From sequence record PZ296772.1: a stretch of DNA of 64,000 nucleotides. One strand, written 5' to 3'. This document shows positions 33,073 to 59,719 of the stretch, in pieces (positions within the stretch are counted from its first letter, which is position 1; each line of letters starts with the position of its first letter). Both the position numbers and the translations under genes were made by a program. Under the pieces are notes generated by a model, which made no database searches, was not told the origin of the DNA, and saw only the letters and a list, made by a program, of their open reading frames with translations. Origin of the DNA: a phage.

Positions 33073-33131
33073 GTTTACATCTTCCTCTAGGCATGATATG
33101 ATGAACTTACACCAACCAAGAGGAAAACATT

Positions 33132-33506
33132 ATGAATATGTCTCAAGCAATTTTTACTGCAATCACCGAAAACAAAACTGTTGAAGTAGTTTCTCCGCTG
33201 GCAACCTACGTTATTCTTGCTCCTAAAACTATTGTATCTCGTATGGAAAACACGGGCAAACGTATCGTACAAATAGTTGGAGCTGGAAATCAAAAACTTG
33301 ATTATCTACGAACCATCAAAGCTTATGAACATTTCCAACTCGAAAAAGGTTCTCCTATCCAGGTAGAACTCGTAAATGGTGATATCGTTCGAGCAATGTT
33401 CCATCATTTCTATGCATTGAATGACCCATCTAAAGCGGTTCGTTTAATTGCATACGACGCAAACCAAAACGAAATCAACGCAGATATATCTAAATTACAT
33501 TTTTAA
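33132..33506 (+). CDS. hypothetical protein
   Basis: 124 aa; gaggaaaacatt RBS. Confidence 0.5.
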   Translation: MNMSQAIFTAITENKTVEVVSPLATYVILAPKTIVSRMENTGKRIVQIVGAGNQKLDYLRTIKAYEHFQLEKGSPIQVELVNGDIVRAMFHHFYALNDPSKAVRLIAYDANQNEINADISKLHF

Positions 33507-33557
33507 GTTTACTTCTCCAGTAGTTGTGTTATTATAGACCCTATCAACTACTGGAGA
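33507..33557 (+). promoter_or_regulatory. early promoter with flanking stem-loop (PeSL-like cassette)
   Basis: gtttac -35, tattat -10, flanked by perfect 13-bp inverted repeat tctccagtagttg / caactactggaga. Confidence 0.65.
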
Positions 33558-33562
33558 ACAAA

Positions 33563-33880
33563 ATGAAAACCATCGATTGTAAAGCAGAATTTAAGATTTT
33601 TTATCACGGTTCAAGTAGTTCAGCTAACATCAAAAACATGCTTTGTCCTCCTGAAGAAACAGGAGTTCTGTCTGAAACAGGACGTAAGAAAAACTTGGAT
33701 CGTGTATTCTTTACTGAAGATATCGGTTTAGCAAAGATTTATGCAGGACGAGCAGCACGCTCTTATGGAGGTGAACCACGTCTCTATCGAGTAATTTCTC
33801 CGGTAGATGTAGTTCAAATGAATGATACTAAAGGCGCTACAGTTTATCACGCTGAATGGGCATTTTGCGAGGAAATATGA
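33563..33880 (+). CDS. hypothetical protein
   Basis: 105 aa from ATG 33563 with ggag RBS. Confidence 0.5.
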   Translation: MKTIDCKAEFKIFYHGSSSSANIKNMLCPPEETGVLSETGRKKNLDRVFFTEDIGLAKIYAGRAARSYGGEPRLYRVISPVDVVQMNDTKGATVYHAEWAFCEEI

Positions 33881-35021: not shown

Positions 35022-35084
35022 ACTTGTTTACATTATAGATGGACTATAGTATAGTAGTCCTATCAAATCAACTAAGGAGTTAAA

Positions 35085-35378
35085 ATGAAAAAGTTATCAT
35101 TGGCAGCAATCTTACTCGCAGTATCATGTGCACCAGCTCCAGTTACGGCAGGTTATGATAAAGACCTCTGTGAGTGGTCAATGACTGCAAATCAAGAAGA
35201 TGTTGAACAACAAATCTTCTCTGATATCATGAACATCACTAAACGAGACCGTCCTAATATGGTTAATAAAGTTGTTGAACAACTTAAGTCTGGTGGTATC
35301 ATGCAGTACAATTATGTTTTGTATTGTGACCCTAATTTCGATAACAAAGATATCGTAACCGAAATCACAGGTGAATAA
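35085..35378 (+). CDS. predicted lipoprotein or secreted protein
   Basis: MKKLSLAAILLAVSCAP signal peptide with lipobox-like AVSC. Confidence 0.55.
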   Translation: MKKLSLAAILLAVSCAPAPVTAGYDKDLCEWSMTANQEDVEQQIFSDIMNITKRDRPNMVNKVVEQLKSGGIMQYNYVLYCDPNFDNKDIVTEITGE

Positions 35379-40227: not shown

Positions 40228-40388
40228 AAGAGAAATTTAAAGAGAAATTCTTACTAGAAATCAAGGAAAAAGACTTTGAGACATGGTATCGAATGGTGAA
40301 AGGGTTGACATTGCTTTTTAAAGCATCCTTATTCATGTTAGAACAACCTGGTCCTGATGGACCTTTAGTAGGAAAGCTTAAAAAGTAG
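40224..40388 (+). CDS. hypothetical small protein (below ORF-track cutoff)
   Basis: 54 aa MKEKFKEKFLLEIKEKDFETWYRMVKGL... Confidence 0.3.
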   Translation: MKEKFKEKFLLEIKEKDFETWYRMVKGLTLLFKASLFMLEQPGPDGPLVGKLKK

Positions 40389-40443
40389 TTTACATTCCCT
40401 CCTCTCGTGTTATGATAGGCTTATCTTTAAATGGAGGTCTATC

Positions 40444-41025
40444 ATGACATGTCAATCTGAACTTCAAGAACATGAATACCTAACAAATCTGATTGATAGC
40501 AAATTCACCCGCCAAGAACAAAACATTCTCTGGGCCTGCACCGATTCTAAGGAAGACCCGGATTTCCACTATGAATTAGACCATCTTGTTCGTAAGCATA
40601 TGACTTCTACAGTGCCAGTAGAACTCTACCGTGGTGTAACTCCAGAAGAAGTAGAACGTCTTTCCCTTCTTTCTGTGGGATGCCATTGGTCTCCTGGACG
40701 AGTAACATCGTTCACAACTGATTTCAGTACAGCTCGTCAATTCTCCGGGAGATGGGAATATCAGACGTACACTATTCTTAGTCTCAGGAATGCTCCATTC
40801 ATTTTTGATTACTACCAAAACATGGTTAACATTGTACTTGCCGGAAAGAACCCTAAGCATGTTATGGAAGAAACGCGTGTTGACGTCCTAGATATGATTG
40901 AATCTGAACAAGAATACATGGTCTCAGGTATCTCTAGATTTGAGATTGTGGAAATTGAAGAGTTAGAGTATGACCCTTTGCCTCGAGTATACAAAATCAT
41001 TCACTTAAAGATGTTGAATTTTTAG
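40444..41025 (+). CDS. ADP-ribosyltransferase, ModA/ModB family (R-S-EXE)
   Basis: 193 aa; YRG arginine, VTSFTTDFS STS-like, ESEQEY EXE motif; paralogue of the next gene. Confidence 0.6.
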   Translation: MTCQSELQEHEYLTNLIDSKFTRQEQNILWACTDSKEDPDFHYELDHLVRKHMTSTVPVELYRGVTPEEVERLSLLSVGCHWSPGRVTSFTTDFSTARQFSGRWEYQTYTILSLRNAPFIFDYYQNMVNIVLAGKNPKHVMEETRVDVLDMIESEQEYMVSGISRFEIVEIEELEYDPLPRVYKIIHLKMLNF

Positions 41026-41691: not shown

Positions 41692-41843
41692 CTGGATTGG
41701 AATAACCGGATGGAACTCAGAACCATTATAACACATAAAAAATTAAAGCATTTTACGAAAAAAGTGTGTACACTACCTGAGGGCATGATATTATAGACCT
41801 ATCAGCTAAATGACCTAACGTCCGTAAGACAGAGGAAAATATT

Positions 41844-46411: not shown

Positions 46412-46460
46412 GTTTACTTCTCCTCCGGTTTTGATATTATAACCATATCAACCAGAGGAG
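46412..46460 (+). promoter_or_regulatory. early promoter with flanking imperfect stem-loop (PeSL-like)
   Basis: gtttac -35, tattat -10, arms tcctccggtt / aaccagagga. Confidence 0.55.
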
Positions 46461-46466
46461 AATAAT

Positions 46467-46991
46467 ATGTTAGTTTACCGCGTAGAACGTAGTTTTTGTA
46501 CTCAACGTGAATCATTACCAGGAATTGCTATCGAAGATGGTAAAGCCGTCAGAATTTGGGAAACCTCTTGGAATAAAGAACCTCGCTCACCATACGGTTG
46601 GTCAGGCACCGACAACTCTGAAGAAACATGGGAGTTCCTTGATAAACATGGAATACTCTCAGGTAACTTCTACCATCATGGCGACAACTATAATGTCCCT
46701 AATCGTCCTACAGTAAATGAAGACAAACTCCTTGAACAAAATATCTTAAGATACCATAGAATTGAGCACACATTTGAATTGAACGAAGATTGGGCTCAAG
46801 GGTTCTATTTTGGATTTGAAAGTGTTGACGCGGTTTATGCATGGTTTGATGACCAGGTGGATGTTGAACTCTTGAAAGCTAAAGGATACTACATCGCTGT
46901 CTATGAAGCACCCGATTTCATCCTCGGAAGTTGTCAATTAATGTTTAGACGTTCATTGGCAGAACAAGTTGATTTTATTTTGCTAAAATGA
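46467..46991 (+). CDS. hypothetical protein
   Basis: 174 aa; gaggag RBS. Confidence 0.5.
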   Translation: MLVYRVERSFCTQRESLPGIAIEDGKAVRIWETSWNKEPRSPYGWSGTDNSEETWEFLDKHGILSGNFYHHGDNYNVPNRPTVNEDKLLEQNILRYHRIEHTFELNEDWAQGFYFGFESVDAVYAWFDDQVDVELLKAKGYYIAVYEAPDFILGSCQLMFRRSLAEQVDFILLK

Positions 46992-55618: not shown

Positions 55619-55656
55619 TGTTTACAACTAAGTAGGACTATGTTATAGTAGTCCTA
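55619..55656 (+). promoter_or_regulatory. early promoter with stem-loop (PeSL-like)
   Basis: gtttaca -35; perfect 8-bp inverted repeat taggacta / tagtccta around the -10 region. Confidence 0.6.
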
Positions 55657-55675
55657 TCTAAAAGAGGATAACATC

Positions 55676-55939
55676 ATGAAATTTAAATTTTTCTACGCAA
55701 AACATAAAGTAACAGGCGAATTTGTTTCGATGTACAACACTGCAGATGACGAAGGGATGGTTTATACCCATTTGGGACTATCTCATTGGGACTCAGACAT
55801 GCCTTATATGTCATCTGAAGCCGAAATAACTCGTCTGGTTAATGGACATATGAACGACCATTTTAATGTCATTCTTTCTAAAGACCTTAAAGATGTTATC
55901 AACAAAGGATATATGGAACTCGCGGAAGTTGAGATATGA
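55676..55939 (+). CDS. hypothetical protein
   Basis: 87 aa; agagga RBS. Confidence 0.5.
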   Translation: MKFKFFYAKHKVTGEFVSMYNTADDEGMVYTHLGLSHWDSDMPYMSSEAEITRLVNGHMNDHFNVILSKDLKDVINKGYMELAEVEI

Positions 55940-56131: not shown

Positions 56132-56168
56132 GTTTACAACACAGTAGGATTATGGTATAGTAGTCCTA
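56132..56168 (+). promoter_or_regulatory. early promoter with stem-loop (PeSL-like)
   Basis: gtttaca -35; taggatta / tagtccta arms (one mismatch). Confidence 0.55.
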
Positions 56169-56189
56169 TCAAAACACGAGGAACACAAA

Positions 56190-56390
56190 ATGGCTAAGCT
56201 TTTTAAAGATGTTGAAATTGGTGAAAAATTTGTCCTGAATAATGGCCAGCAGCTTATTCGTGTAGCTTCTATAGCCGGACAAACTCATAACTGCATCACC
56301 CCAACGTGTTGGTCCCGATTCTTTATTGAGGATGATACCGAATGTTTAACTGTTGAAGAGCTTTTTGAACGTTCTGATATGGCCGAATAA
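56190..56390 (+). CDS. hypothetical protein
   Basis: 66 aa; gagg RBS. Confidence 0.5.
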   Translation: MAKLFKDVEIGEKFVLNNGQQLIRVASIAGQTHNCITPTCWSRFFIEDDTECLTVEELFERSDMAE

Positions 56391-57256: not shown

Positions 57257-58582
57257 ATGCAATTGAATTCTCGTAATCTAAAAAGTATTATTGATAACGA
57301 AGCCTTAGCATATGCGATGTACACCGTTGAAAACCGTGCAATCCCAAACATGATTGATGGATTTAAGCCGGTTCAACGTTTTGTGGTTCATCGTGCGTTA
57401 GATTTGGCTCGTGGTAATAAAGAAAAATTTCATAAACTTGCGTCAATTGCAGGCGGTGTTGCTGATTTAGGTTATCATCATGGCGAATCTTCTGCACAAG
57501 ATGCAGGTGCATTGATGGCTAATACGTGGAATAACAACTATCCACTGTTAGACGGCCAAGGCAACTTTGGTTCTAGAACAGTCCAAAAAGCTGCAGCATC
57601 TCGTTATATTTTTGCTCGTGTAAGTAAAAATTTCTATAATGTCTATAAAGATACTGAATATGCTCCAGCACATGAAGATAAAGAACACGTTCCACCAAAA
57701 TTCTATCTTCCTATTATTCCGACAGTTCTTTTGAATGGCGTCTCTGGTATTGCAACCGGTTACGCAACAAATATTCTGCCTCATAGTTTTAAATCAGTCA
57801 AAAAGGCCGTATTACAAGCTCTTCAAGGTAAAAATGTCACTAAACCAAAAGTTGAATTCCCGGAATTCCGTGGTGAAGTGCATGAAGTTGATGGACGTTA
57901 TGAGATTCACGGAACATATAAGTTCACATCTCGCACTCAAATGCAGATAACTGAAATCCCATATAAATTCGACCGTGAAACGTATGTGAGTAAGGTTCTT
58001 GACCCGTTGGAAGACAAAGGTCTAATCTCATGGGAAGATGATTGCGGTGAACACGGCTTTGGGTTTAAGGTGAAGTTCCGTAAAGAGTACTCGCTTCCTG
58101 ATGATGAAGAGCTACGTCATGAAAAAATCATGAAAGATTTTAGTCTCATCGAACGTCGTTCACAAAACATCACAGTGATTAATGAAAAGGGTAAATTAGC
58201 GGTCTACGATAACGTAGTGGACTTAATCAAAGATTTTGTTGAAGTCCGTAAGACTTACGTTCAGAAACGTATTGATAACAAAATCCTTGAATCTGAAAAA
58301 GCATTTAAACTTGCTTTTGCTAAGGCACACTTCATCAAAAAAGTTATCAGTGGCGAAATTGTGATTCAGGGCAAGACTCGTAAAGCTTTGACTGAAGAGC
58401 TAGCACAAATCGAAATGTATAAAGAACATGTTGATAAACTGGTAGGTCTTAACATCTTCCATATCACTTCCGATGAAGCACGTAAACTAGCAGAAGAAGC
58501 TAAAGCTAAGAAAGAAGAAAATGAGTATTGGAAGTCTACTGATGTTGTGACAGAGTACACTAAAGACTTGGAGGCACTTTGA
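57257..58582 (+). CDS. 52: DNA topoisomerase II medium subunit gp52 (GyrA-like)
   Basis: 441 aa; MIDGFKPVQRFVVH...LASIAGG...HHGE cleavage-religation domain motifs. Confidence 0.9.
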   Translation: MQLNSRNLKSIIDNEALAYAMYTVENRAIPNMIDGFKPVQRFVVHRALDLARGNKEKFHKLASIAGGVADLGYHHGESSAQDAGALMANTWNNNYPLLDGQGNFGSRTVQKAAASRYIFARVSKNFYNVYKDTEYAPAHEDKEHVPPKFYLPIIPTVLLNGVSGIATGYATNILPHSFKSVKKAVLQALQGKNVTKPKVEFPEFRGEVHEVDGRYEIHGTYKFTSRTQMQITEIPYKFDRETYVSKVLDPLEDKGLISWEDDCGEHGFGFKVKFRKEYSLPDDEELRHEKIMKDFSLIERRSQNITVINEKGKLAVYDNVVDLIKDFVEVRKTYVQKRIDNKILESEKAFKLAFAKAHFIKKVISGEIVIQGKTRKALTEELAQIEMYKEHVDKLVGLNIFHITSDEARKLAEEAKAKKEENEYWKSTDVVTEYTKDLEAL

Positions 58583-58658
58583 GTGCCCTAGCCTTAGGAT
58601 TTCTCGGTGCAATAGCTGCACTAGTGATTTGGCTGTATTGGTTGGACAATCATGATTA

Positions 58659-58680
58659 GGGAGCTTCGGCTCCCTTTTGT
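58659..58680 (+). terminator. rho-independent terminator
   Basis: gggagc-ttcg-gctccc hairpin plus ttttgtg. Confidence 0.7.
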
Positions 58681-58699
58681 GCATTTTTCTCACAAAACA

Positions 58700-58746
58700 G
58701 TTTACATGTGCTTCAAACATGATATTATAGACCTATCAAAACAAAA
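58700..58746 (+). promoter_or_regulatory. early/middle hybrid promoter (duplicated cassette, copy 1)
   Basis: gtttaca, tgcttca MotA-box-like, tattat, agacctatcaaaacaaa leader. Confidence 0.55.
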
Positions 58747-58767
58747 CAACCAAATTGGAGAAATAAA

Positions 58768-58983
58768 ATGTCTAAAATGAAATTAACCCAAAACACAACT
58801 ACTCGTTTCGGTAAAGTCAAACCTGGTATGAATGCTCTCCGTAAAGCACTTGTTGAAGAATTAAATTTCTTAGAAGTTGAAATCAATTCTTTAGTGGTTC
58901 GCGGTTCAAATGGTCATCATTTAGAAAAGCTTCGTTCTAAAAAGGCAAAACTTATTAGCCTTATTAAAGAAATGAGTTTGTAA
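58768..58983 (+). CDS. hypothetical basic protein
   Basis: 71 aa starting MSK; ttggagaaataaaATG leader shared with motA. Confidence 0.5.
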   Translation: MSKMKLTQNTTTRFGKVKPGMNALRKALVEELNFLEVEINSLVVRGSNGHHLEKLRSKKAKLISLIKEMSL

Positions 58984-59020
58984 ATTTTACCAGGGCTTTT
59001 GAAAAAGAGCCCAAAATAAA

Positions 59021-59066
59021 GTTTACTTTTGCTTCAAACATGATATTATAGACCTATCAAAACAAA
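59021..59066 (+). promoter_or_regulatory. early/middle hybrid promoter for motA (duplicated cassette, copy 2)
   Basis: gtttac, tttgcttca, tattat, agacctatcaaaacaaa; preceded by gggct/agccc hairpin. Confidence 0.55.
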
Positions 59067-59086
59067 TACTAATTTGGAGAAATAAA

Positions 59087-59719
59087 ATGTCTAAAGTTAC
59101 TTACATCATCAAAGCTTCTGAAAACGCTCTGAATGAAAAAACTGCTGCAATAATGGTTTATATCATTAAGAACAACTTCACCACTGCTGCCAATGTCCGT
59201 GAAGCTCTGGAAGCAGAATACAACGCATCAGTTGTTAACTCTAACATTGGTGTATTGATTAAGAAAGGTTTAGTCGAAAAATCCGGTGACGGACTTGTAG
59301 CAACAGGCGAAGCAATGGATATTATCCAAAAAGCTGCAGACCTCTTTGCCCAAGAAAATGCTCCAGAACTTCTTCAGAAACGTAACACTAGAAAAGCACG
59401 TGGAGTTACTCCTGAAATGCATGAATTAGCAAACTTTGTTTTTGAAAATATTAAAGATAAAGTTGAAGTTAAAGAAATTGGTGAAAACCGTAGTAACTTA
59501 GAAGTTCGATTCGCTAAACGAGTTCTAGGCATTCGCCAAATTGAAATTCGACGAGATGGCGCTCTTAGAATCTTTGCATACAACATGTCAGAAACTGAAT
59601 CAAAGCTGTTTACTTCTCTTGAAAATGATGTTAAGATTAAGATCGGTGGTAAATATACTTACATTGACTTCCCTAATGTGTCCAAAGAAATCATTACCCT
59701 TGTAACTAACGTACTGTGA
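59087..59719 (+). CDS. motA: middle transcription activator MotA
   Basis: MSKVTYIIKAS...NSNIGVLIKKGLVEKSGDGL matches T4 MotA from memory; 210 aa. Confidence 0.9.
   Translation: MSKVTYIIKASENALNEKTAAIMVYIIKNNFTTAANVREALEAEYNASVVNSNIGVLIKKGLVEKSGDGLVATGEAMDIIQKAADLFAQENAPELLQKRNTRKARGVTPEMHELANFVFENIKDKVEVKEIGENRSNLEVRFAKRVLGIRQIEIRRDGALRIFAYNMSETESKLFTSLENDVKIKIGGKYTYIDFPNVSKEIITLVTNVL

Follow-up and report, generated by a model that had tools for sequence, protein, structure and literature searches.

Repeated early-promoter cassettes, probably of the PeSL type, flank an optional small gene upstream of motA in T4-type phages

The DNA directly upstream of motA, the gene for the activator of middle transcription, raises a simple question in phage sequence record PZ296772.1: why do a promoter, a leader and a start of translation occur there twice in near-identical form, once before motA itself and once before a preceding open reading frame (ORF) of 71 amino acids (aa)? 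The window analyzed here is the whole 64-kb stretch of this record (64,000 nucleotides, one strand, 5' to 3'). The 1.6 kb round the repeat agree with Escherichia phage AlbertHofmann (Bas47) at 99.9% identity and with about 156 records at 96 to 99%; these records are RB69-like T4-type phages of the genus Mosigvirus, to which the window, by its sequence, belongs. The gene order is ndd, ac, 52.1, gene 52, the 71-aa ORF, motA and arn.4. We consider it likely that the repeats are paralogous early regulatory cassettes of the promoter-early stem-loop (PeSL) type, which serve both as independent early promoters and as recombination substrates in the interval between gene 52 and motA.

A preliminary description of this DNA had placed a duplicated promoter-leader-start cassette here, with its copies driving the 71-aa ORF and motA. 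Self-comparison of the sequence bore out the cassette, which is slightly longer than first described, and the positions of copy 1 and copy 2 fit the proposed target genes. By gapped local alignment, the direct repeat runs from 58691 to 58776 and from 59012 to 59095, with 76 of 86 bases identical and one 2-bp insertion or deletion (indel). The alignment score of 65 compares with 15.5 +/- 2.5, and a maximum of 31, in 300 shuffles. A repeat search returned two blocks offset by this indel, 58691-58745 against 59012-59066 (55 nt, 91% identity) and 58740-58776 against 59059-59095 (37 nt, 84%). The repeat unit has a period of about 320 bp, and identity is perfect over a core of 37 to 41 bp and a patch of 22 bp. 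The exact 37-mer TGCTTCAAACATGATATTATAGACCTATCAAAACAAA occurs only twice in the window (58709-58745 and 59030-59066), even with three mismatches allowed, and had no match in 100 dinucleotide-preserving shuffles. In both copies the homology stops right after ATG TCT AAA, the first codons of the 71-aa ORF (start at 58768) and of motA (start at 59087). A third copy elsewhere had been suspected because records of relatives gave two match places each; it was discarded, since single-copy genomes give one place only, and the additional place is most simply an off-diagonal match of one copy on the other.

Both copies present the same elements in the same order (Table 1): an A-rich tract, the -35 element GTTTAC, a 17-nt spacer with TGCTTCA inside it and TGn at its end, the -10 element TATTAT, AGACCTATCAAAACAAA, a short variable leader, TTGGAGAAATAAA and ATG TCT AAA. 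The cassettes are intergenic, each beginning after an upstream stop codon (58657-58659 and 58981-58983) and running through GGAG to the ATG at 58768 or 59087. In a scan for the sigma-70 consensus, copy 1 scored 10/12 and copy 2 scored 9/12, with the extended -10 TG in both. As tested for early promoters, the copies read TTTACA-N16-TATTAT and TTTACT-N16-TATTAT, with a gap one base below the published N17 (PMC4122927). The single cassette of RB69 was previously predicted as early promoter Pe:162713, with the remark "1 bp del" (Nolan et al. 2006).

A stem-loop lies upstream of each copy. Stem-loop 1 (SL1) fits an intrinsic terminator, with a 6-bp GC-rich stem (GGGAGC/GCUCCC), a UUCG loop and UUUU directly after it. 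Its orthologue carries a terminator annotation in phage SA79RD, and in RB69 TransTerm predicted it as the terminator "motA<--52" (Nolan et al. 2006). The RNA stem of stem-loop 2 (SL2), GGGCUUUU/AAGAGCCC, is followed by AAAAUAAAG and has no U-run, and it thus lacks this feature of an intrinsic terminator. SL2 of SA79RD was called a terminator by one program. SL2 is kept in the genus Dhakavirus with a compensatory change (AGAGCTCTT-GAAA-AAGAGCTC, z -4.95), and it is also seen 3' of other small genes in Marfavirus and Tequatrovirus loci. A simple terminator scan of the window listed neither SL1 nor SL2, both of which rest on folding and on published or annotated predictions. The SL1 loop is TTCG in the window (58665-58668) and CGAA, its reverse complement, in RB69 (L002 1966-1969), with identical stems; this change is a hairpin-loop inversion, such as template switching inside a palindrome produces.

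When both strands of 58400-59300 were searched against Rfam, nothing matched at E<=1, so that no known riboswitch, leader or small RNA accounts for the conservation. An inverted repeat complementary to the Shine-Dalgarno (SD) sequence was sought inside the cassettes of the motA locus, and none was kept in both copies. The region upstream of motA in T4 has the same layout, with motA.1, a hairpin and U-run, GTTTAC-N18-TACTAT, GGAG and ATG TCT AAA. However, T4 has one copy of the cassette with no ORF between, and its spacer is unrelated and without TGCTT, whereas in the window the motA-type SD is attached to a second gene, the 71-aa ORF, as well.

The leaders may be a further point of control. 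Cleavage of the T4 motA SD by RegB was reportedly described by Sanson and Uzan in 1993 and reviewed later. Both copies in the window carry GGAGAAATAAA, which by reading matches the RegB consensus at 9/11 positions; the corresponding T4 motA sequence, GGAGATTAGAA, matches at 10/11. The consensus of a strong RegB site is GG*AGRAYARAA (PMC3014915), and in T4 the cleavage of the motA SD confines MotA synthesis to the early burst (PMC2988021). GGAG with an A-rich tract is common to the window cassettes and T4 motA, and the RegB concerned would be the diverged RB69 type. By analogy with T4, control of both the 71-aa ORF and motA by RegB is plausible.

The repeat unit is present or absent as a whole among close relatives. 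The ORF with two cassettes is found in about half of the approximately 156 records (76 to 77), and the remaining relatives match in two pieces and are 320 to 321 bp shorter, exactly one unit. The preliminary description had asked whether relatives without the ORF have a single copy, and this is the case in RB69, in pEK20, in two Mosigviruses from IMG/VR (L005 and L006) and in one Dhakavirus (L014). (For relatives in IMG/VR, a MotA protein query gave two loci, and a DNA pattern in IUPAC code for the core of the promoter gave eight.) RB69 is 321 bp shorter than the window, lacks the 71-aa ORF and has one cassette, composed of the upstream part of copy 1 and the leader of copy 2; this junction was found at 100% identity in RB69 only. 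L005 and L006 also lack the ORF, and in them the copy-1 leader (AACAACCAAA) is joined to motA, which places the crossover in the 22-nt SD patch TTGGAGAAATAAAATGTCTAAA (the SD/ATGTCTAAA patch). This fusion of the copy-1 leader to motA is the common junction: 95 records match it at >=95% identity, and a small number of them retain the ORF. Since the copy-2 leader (AAAACAAATAC...) is the motA leader type in Marfavirus, Karamvirus and Moonvirus, these fusions read best as deletion scars from an ORF-bearing ancestor. Two further arrangements, an intermediate and a mosaic one, were seen. In PHB12, which keeps the ORF, both cassettes bear the copy-1 leader. pEK20, without the ORF, has the copy-2 leader, and in it a Dhakavirus-like small ORF and terminator stem are joined to a Mosigvirus promoter at the U-run.

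Across genera, the interval between gene 52 and motA holds different small genes. There is nothing between the two genes in T4, RB69 and Dhakavirus L014. The 71-aa ORF (cargo A) occupies the interval in Mosigvirus and in Dhakavirus, including JS98 and VR5; a 73-aa ORF (cargo B) does so in Dhakavirus L010; and cargo A and B stand in tandem, with three cassettes, in IME08. A 75-aa ORF (cargo C) is present in Dhakavirus L013 and in many Tequatroviruses, and a 76-aa ORF (cargo D) in Marfavirus PWKp16. Cargo C was found in 168 phage records. In three Tequatrovirus-type loci from IMG/VR (L008, L009 and L011) it lies between a T4-type gene 52 and a T4-type motA; upstream, the promoter is the one that T4 itself has before motA, and the promoter before the T4-type motA has a Dhakavirus-type core. 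This mixture points to transfer of the gene between genera with a cassette attached. Homologues of cargo B with 63 to 66% identity occur in Mosigviruses at another locus, about 80 kb away, which in a related phage is flanked by early-promoter cassettes with the patches CACAAAACAGTTTACAT and GGAGAAATAAAATG.

Two observations on individual loci may be added. In IME08 (L016, HM071924), cargo B (1301-1519) is unannotated and motA is annotated (1522-2229) as about 25 codons longer, so as to abut cargo B; the motA start is probably mis-called. In the Proteus Bragavirus phiP4-3 (L024, at 601 and 923), two identical promoter cores related to those described here, GTTTACTTTTGCTGTAGACATGTTATTAT, lie 322 nt apart and surround a small ORF by the DNA ligase gene, the same architecture with nearly the same period at an unrelated locus of a distant genus.

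Within a genome, the two copies share the core variants of their lineage. Both read TGCTTC...TATTAT in Mosigvirus, TGCTTT...TACTAT in JS98 and ...ACGTGTTATTAT in IME08; likewise, TTA occurs in both copies of VR5 as against TTC in both copies of JS98, and TTT in both copies of SA79RD. In comparisons between lineages, two to three core sites change alike in both copies, and the copies of one genome differ at zero to five sites. This co-variation is suggestive of homogenization by recombination or conversion, or of repeated excision and re-integration.

These features have a close precedent. PeSL elements of T4-type phages were described in RB49 and phi1 (Arbiol 2010; PMC2839356) and in PST/T4 and nt-1/KVP40 (Comeau 2014; PMC4122927). 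In the PeSL model, cassettes are repeated through plastic regions of the genome, and recombination between flanking copies deletes the ORF and leaves a chimera (PMC2839356, PMC4122927). The recombination releases a mini-circle that is able to re-insert at another cassette, and such circles were detected by inverse PCR (PMC2839356). Crossovers in RB49/phi1 were mapped between the -10 and the SD/ATG (PMC2839356), and the promoter consensus of PeSLs in T4-type phages is TTTACW...TAYWAT (PMC4122927).

The cassettes at the motA locus likewise comprise a stem-loop, an A/T-rich tract, a sigma-70-like early promoter, an SD and an ATG in repeated copies. Two copies flank a small ORF that is missing from close relatives, which keep one chimeric cassette, and the crossover zones also fall between the -10 and the SD/ATG, as they do for the mini-circles. 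In contrast to the published PeSLs, the site lies directly before a core regulatory gene and not deep in a cluster of ORFans; one site is occupied, in four or more genera, by four or more different cargo genes, and its copies show lineage-specific co-variation; and in Mosigvirus the homology reaches into coding sequence (ATG TCT AAA). Mini-circles and the activity of promoters and terminators were demonstrated in RB49/phi1 by inverse PCR and reporter fusions (PMC2839356). The unit also resembles the morons of lambdoid phages, in which one small accessory gene, equipped with a promoter and a hairpin of its own, lies between conserved genes. Unlike in morons, the flanking regulatory sequences here are homologous substrates for gain and loss, and the gene is oriented as its neighbors are; the authors of the PeSL work draw the same contrast (PMC2839356).

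On the PeSL reading, each cassette would give an independent early burst of transcription of the gene downstream of it, copy 1 of the 71-aa ORF and copy 2 of motA and probably of arn.4/emp. Recombination on the cassettes is possible because they form direct repeats about 320 bp apart with perfect identity over the core and the 22-bp patch. Homologous recombination by the phage between the repeats would (a) delete the unit and leave one chimeric cassette, (b) re-insert or exchange units bearing other small genes and (c) homogenize the two copies. The interval between gene 52 and motA would then be a recombination hot spot, at which optional early genes could be gained, lost and swapped with the expression of motA undisturbed.

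Several points weigh against this reading. Promoter strength, termination and RegB cleavage are deduced from the sequence and from T4. SL2, having no U-run, may not terminate transcription; both promoters would then feed motA, and the picture of an insulated module would be incomplete. The PeSL is a loosely defined element, and almost any T4-type early promoter beside a hairpin qualifies. Whether a given event was a deletion or an insertion is argued from parsimony. The co-variation of the copies involves one to three sites per comparison, and re-integration, or selection on a shared binding site, could explain it. Finally, the counts of allele types are approximate, being taken from BLAST identity bands with duplicate GenBank and RefSeq records included.

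The best surviving alternative, which we regard as improbable, is that the near-identity of the copies is kept mainly by selection on a site shared by their spacers (TGCTTYA/GCTT), bound by MotA or another factor, and not by recombination. Such selection would give the 71-aa ORF and motA co-ordinated shut-off or dual early and middle control. TGCTTYA is invariant in both copies of Mosigvirus, Dhakavirus and Marfavirus, three genera, while the adjoining spacer bases vary, and GCTT(T/A)AAA is kept at the same place in the motA promoters of Karamvirus and Moonvirus. The remaining 11 early promoters in the window all lack the block. Moreover, several T4 early genes rise in motA- infections (PMC2988021). 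However, T4's own motA promoter is without the block, MotA by itself binds DNA weakly (PMC2988021), and a site of 7 nt leaves 30 other identical core positions and the in-register deletions unexplained.

The relation of the block to a MotA box also tells against this alternative in part. The consensus of the MotA box is (a/t)(a/t)(a/t)TGCTTtA, and in middle promoters the box replaces the -35 element, being centered at -30 and lying 12 +/- 1 bp upstream of the -10 (PMC2988021). TGCTTCA matches the core of the box in both copies, preceded by ATG in copy 1 (a partial match) and by TTT in copy 2 (a match). The cassettes have in common with the MotA-dependent middle promoters of T4 and RB69 the core TGCTT(t/c)A and a good -10 preceded by TGn. 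The preliminary description had both copies combine an early -35 with a MotA-box-like tgcttca; both elements are indeed present, but the dual early/middle reading is opposed by the spacing. The box ends at 58715 and 59036 and the -10 begins at 58723 and 59044, leaving 7 bp (7 to 8 bp by another count), with the good consensus -35 GTTTAC in place. No TAnnnT was found 11 to 13 bp past TGCTTCA in either copy. A canonical MotA-dependent middle promoter was therefore rejected. Elsewhere on the + strand of the window there are nine middle-promoter candidates with proper spacing.

A narrower version of the shared-site explanation, to which we give slightly less credence still, takes the spacer block for a MotA operator: once synthesized, MotA would attach there, within the early promoter of its own gene, and together with AsiA-modified polymerase would turn that promoter off. 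If so, MotA would have a negative role, the identity of the cassettes would have a functional reason, and any cargo recombining into the site would inherit MotA-dependent autoregulation. Selection on a shared site is in any case compatible with recombining PeSL-type cassettes and does not exclude them.

A second alternative, and a very unlikely one, is a recent form of the local duplication that the preliminary description had suggested, in which the 5' region of motA (promoter, leader and first codons) was duplicated in tandem and the sequence between the copies became a new gene under motA-type control. The repeat is indeed tandem and local, and it takes in the SD and first three codons of motA. 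The history of the 71-aa ORF speaks against this. The ORF was found in 94 phage records, 76 of Mosigvirus at >=95% identity, one at 87% and 17 of Dhakavirus. The full-length homologues in these Dhakaviruses (JS98, VR5, IME08, Bp7, C6 and others) are 72 to 77% identical and lie at the same place, between two cassettes and with a homologous SL2 after them. Between the window and JS98, the ratio of nonsynonymous to synonymous divergence (dN/dS) is 0.21 for the ORF, with dS 1.16, and 0.23 for motA, with dS 1.03. The low dN/dS and a dS like that of motA indicate a gene under purifying selection that has diverged together with its neighbor and is old, not new. Further, relatives differ mostly by loss or exchange of the unit, and unrelated cargo lies between the same cassettes elsewhere.

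The shared gene start did not stand as evidence of duplication either. In Dhakavirus the repeat comprises the 41-nt promoter core only, and the ORF starts with MNK behind a leader and an SD of its own. The Mosigvirus ORF begins with MSK and has the same SD and first three codons as motA, with nothing in common beyond codon 3. Since the Dhakavirus ORF starts with MNK and the repeat there falls short of the leader, the SD and MSK start that the ORF and motA have in common in Mosigvirus point to a tract of recombination or conversion from the motA leader rather than to a duplicated gene start. The Dhakavirus orthologues thus largely refute the model of a recent duplication; had they come from Mosigvirus by recent transfer, their dS would be close to zero and not about 1.2.

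The product of the ORF gives few clues of its own. It matched phrog_6200, a family annotated as of unknown function, and had no Pfam match. Only eight clusters among 5.8 billion proteins contain it, and by sequence the protein appears confined to these phages. AlphaFold2 (mean confidence, pLDDT, 76) placed helices at residues 23-44 and 50-70, a predicted helical hairpin, and a Foldseek search against viral structures gave its own orthologue and non-specific helical matches only. The ORF fell outside a screen of early proteins of Mosigvirus AV110 because it has no T4 homologue.

The cassettes at motA belong to a larger family. On the + strand of the window, a scan for GTTTAC-N16-18-TAnnnT found about 13 promoters; every one precedes an ORF, and most of these promoters share TATnaT-agaCCTATCa. 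The pair at the motA locus is the most similar of the 78 pairs of 13 cassettes, with 83% identity against a median of 48% over 54 ungapped positions. Two other pairs are about 80% alike, 1859/44907 and 55620/56132, and the promoter at 35026 falls in one sub-family with the latter. Near-identical cassette repeats are thus a feature of this genome and not of the motA locus alone. The third and weakest alternative, that the two copies have no special kinship and converged as good matches to the T4-type early-promoter and ribosome-binding site consensus, could draw on the shared GTTTAC-N17/18-TATnaT-agaCCTATCa and on these two other pairs, but it can practically be set aside, since the exact 37-mer takes in normally unconstrained spacer and leader and was never matched in the shuffles, the pair tops all 78, random pairs of early promoters of this genome do not attain 88% identity over 86 nt, and the one-unit deletions in relatives join the copies in register.

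Members of this family show several features in their own right. The promoters at 55620 and 56132 are 512 bp apart, before 87-aa and 66-aa ORFs just upstream of ndd, and may delimit another exchangeable unit; those at 1859 and 44907 are separated by 43 kb. Several of the other early promoters (Table 1) have a spacer between -35 and -10 that is complementary to the SD region of the downstream gene, as in TTCTCCAGTAGTTG...CAACTACTGGAGAA at 33507 and TTCTCCTCCGGTT...AACCAGAGGAGAA at 46412; at 55620, 56132 and 35026 the complementary pair TAGGACTAT...TAGTCCTA lies round the -10. Judged from the sequence, read-through RNA would sequester the ribosome-binding site and RNA from the local promoter would not. 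[quoted passage not shown] The motA cassette has a third relative, a partial one, at 41766-41830 (CATGATATTATAGACCTATCAGCTAAATGACC). The leader there is similar to those of copy 1 in Marfavirus and of motA in Winklervirus (CTATCAGCTAAATGA...), so that leader modules, too, are common to different loci and genera.

The principle at work is established by the PeSL studies, and the locus represents neither a new kind of element nor a new mechanism. The two PeSL papers (PMC2839356, PMC4122927) contain no mention of motA or RB69, and a literature search found no paper describing a cassette locus between gene 52 and motA. The particulars thus appear to be undescribed, namely that a hot spot lies directly upstream of motA, that no fewer than four genera use it for four or more cargo genes, and that it shows two deletion junction types and homology reaching into coding sequence. 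The locus documents cleanly, in natural isolates, how the early gene set of T4-type phages is remodeled, and gain or loss of a unit upstream of motA and arn.4/emp may alter the number of early promoters that feed both. It also offers a well-defined system for the rates of short-homology recombination, the homogenization of cassettes and the effect of an optional early ORF on fitness.

Table 1. Positions of the repeat copies, stem-loops, genes and related promoters in the window
Feature	Position	Strand	Elements and evidence
Repeat copy 1	58691..58776	+	A-rich tract; -35 GTTTAC 58700-58705; TGCTTCA 58709-58715; TGn 58720-58722; -10 TATTAT 58723-58728; leader; GGAG 58757-58760; ATG TCT AAA 58768-58776
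Repeat copy 2	59012..59095	+	-35 GTTTAC 59021-59026; TGCTTCA 59030-59036; TGn 59041-59043; -10 TATTAT 59044-59049; leader; GGAG 59076-59079; ATG TCT AAA 59087-59095
SL1, terminator-like	58659..58678	+	GGGAGC-TTCG-GCTCCC then TTTT; fold -15.7 kcal/mol, z -4.1
SL2	58993..59012	+	GGGCTTTT-GAAA-AAGAGCCC; fold -12.3 kcal/mol, z -3.4
71-aa ORF (cargo A), conserved optional early gene	58768..58983	+	phrog_6200, E 1e-39
Gene 52, topoisomerase II medium subunit, left conserved anchor	57257..58582	+	441-aa ORF; Pfam DNA_topoisoIV E 4.6e-78; annotated gp52 in RB69, AlbertHofmann and T4
Possible hydrophobic mini-ORF, 26 codons, uncertain	58579..58659	+	TTG start, GGAGG 4 nt upstream; read from sequence
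motA, activator of middle transcription	59087..59719	+	Pfam MotA_activ E 2.4e-39, MotCF E 2.2e-8; phrog_1345 E 5e-90
arn.4 homologue, 109 aa	59730..60059	+	starts 10 nt past motA stop; annotated arn.4 in RB69
Promoters with spacer/SD complementarity	33507-33590, 46412-46490, 33073-33150, 40388-40460, 55620-55680, 56132-56195, 35026-35090		

Among the flanking genes, a possible mini-ORF (MSALALGFLGAIAALVIWLYWLDNHD) has a start codon that overlaps the stop of gene 52. It had no PHROG match and is unannotated in RB69 and AlbertHofmann; at the same position T4 has motA.1 (49 aa) and the Dhakaviruses have a 34-aa hydrophobic ORF. The MotA protein of the window is 100% identical to that of RB69. The arn.4 homologue is probably co-transcribed with motA and is 98% identical to a 109-aa protein adjoining motA in AV110. 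Judged by size and position, that protein is Gp94 "Emp", and the arn.4 homologue of the window is its orthologue. Gp94 of AV110 is reported to be a growth inhibitor of E. coli that acts via MreB/C/D (bioRxiv preprint, September 2026).

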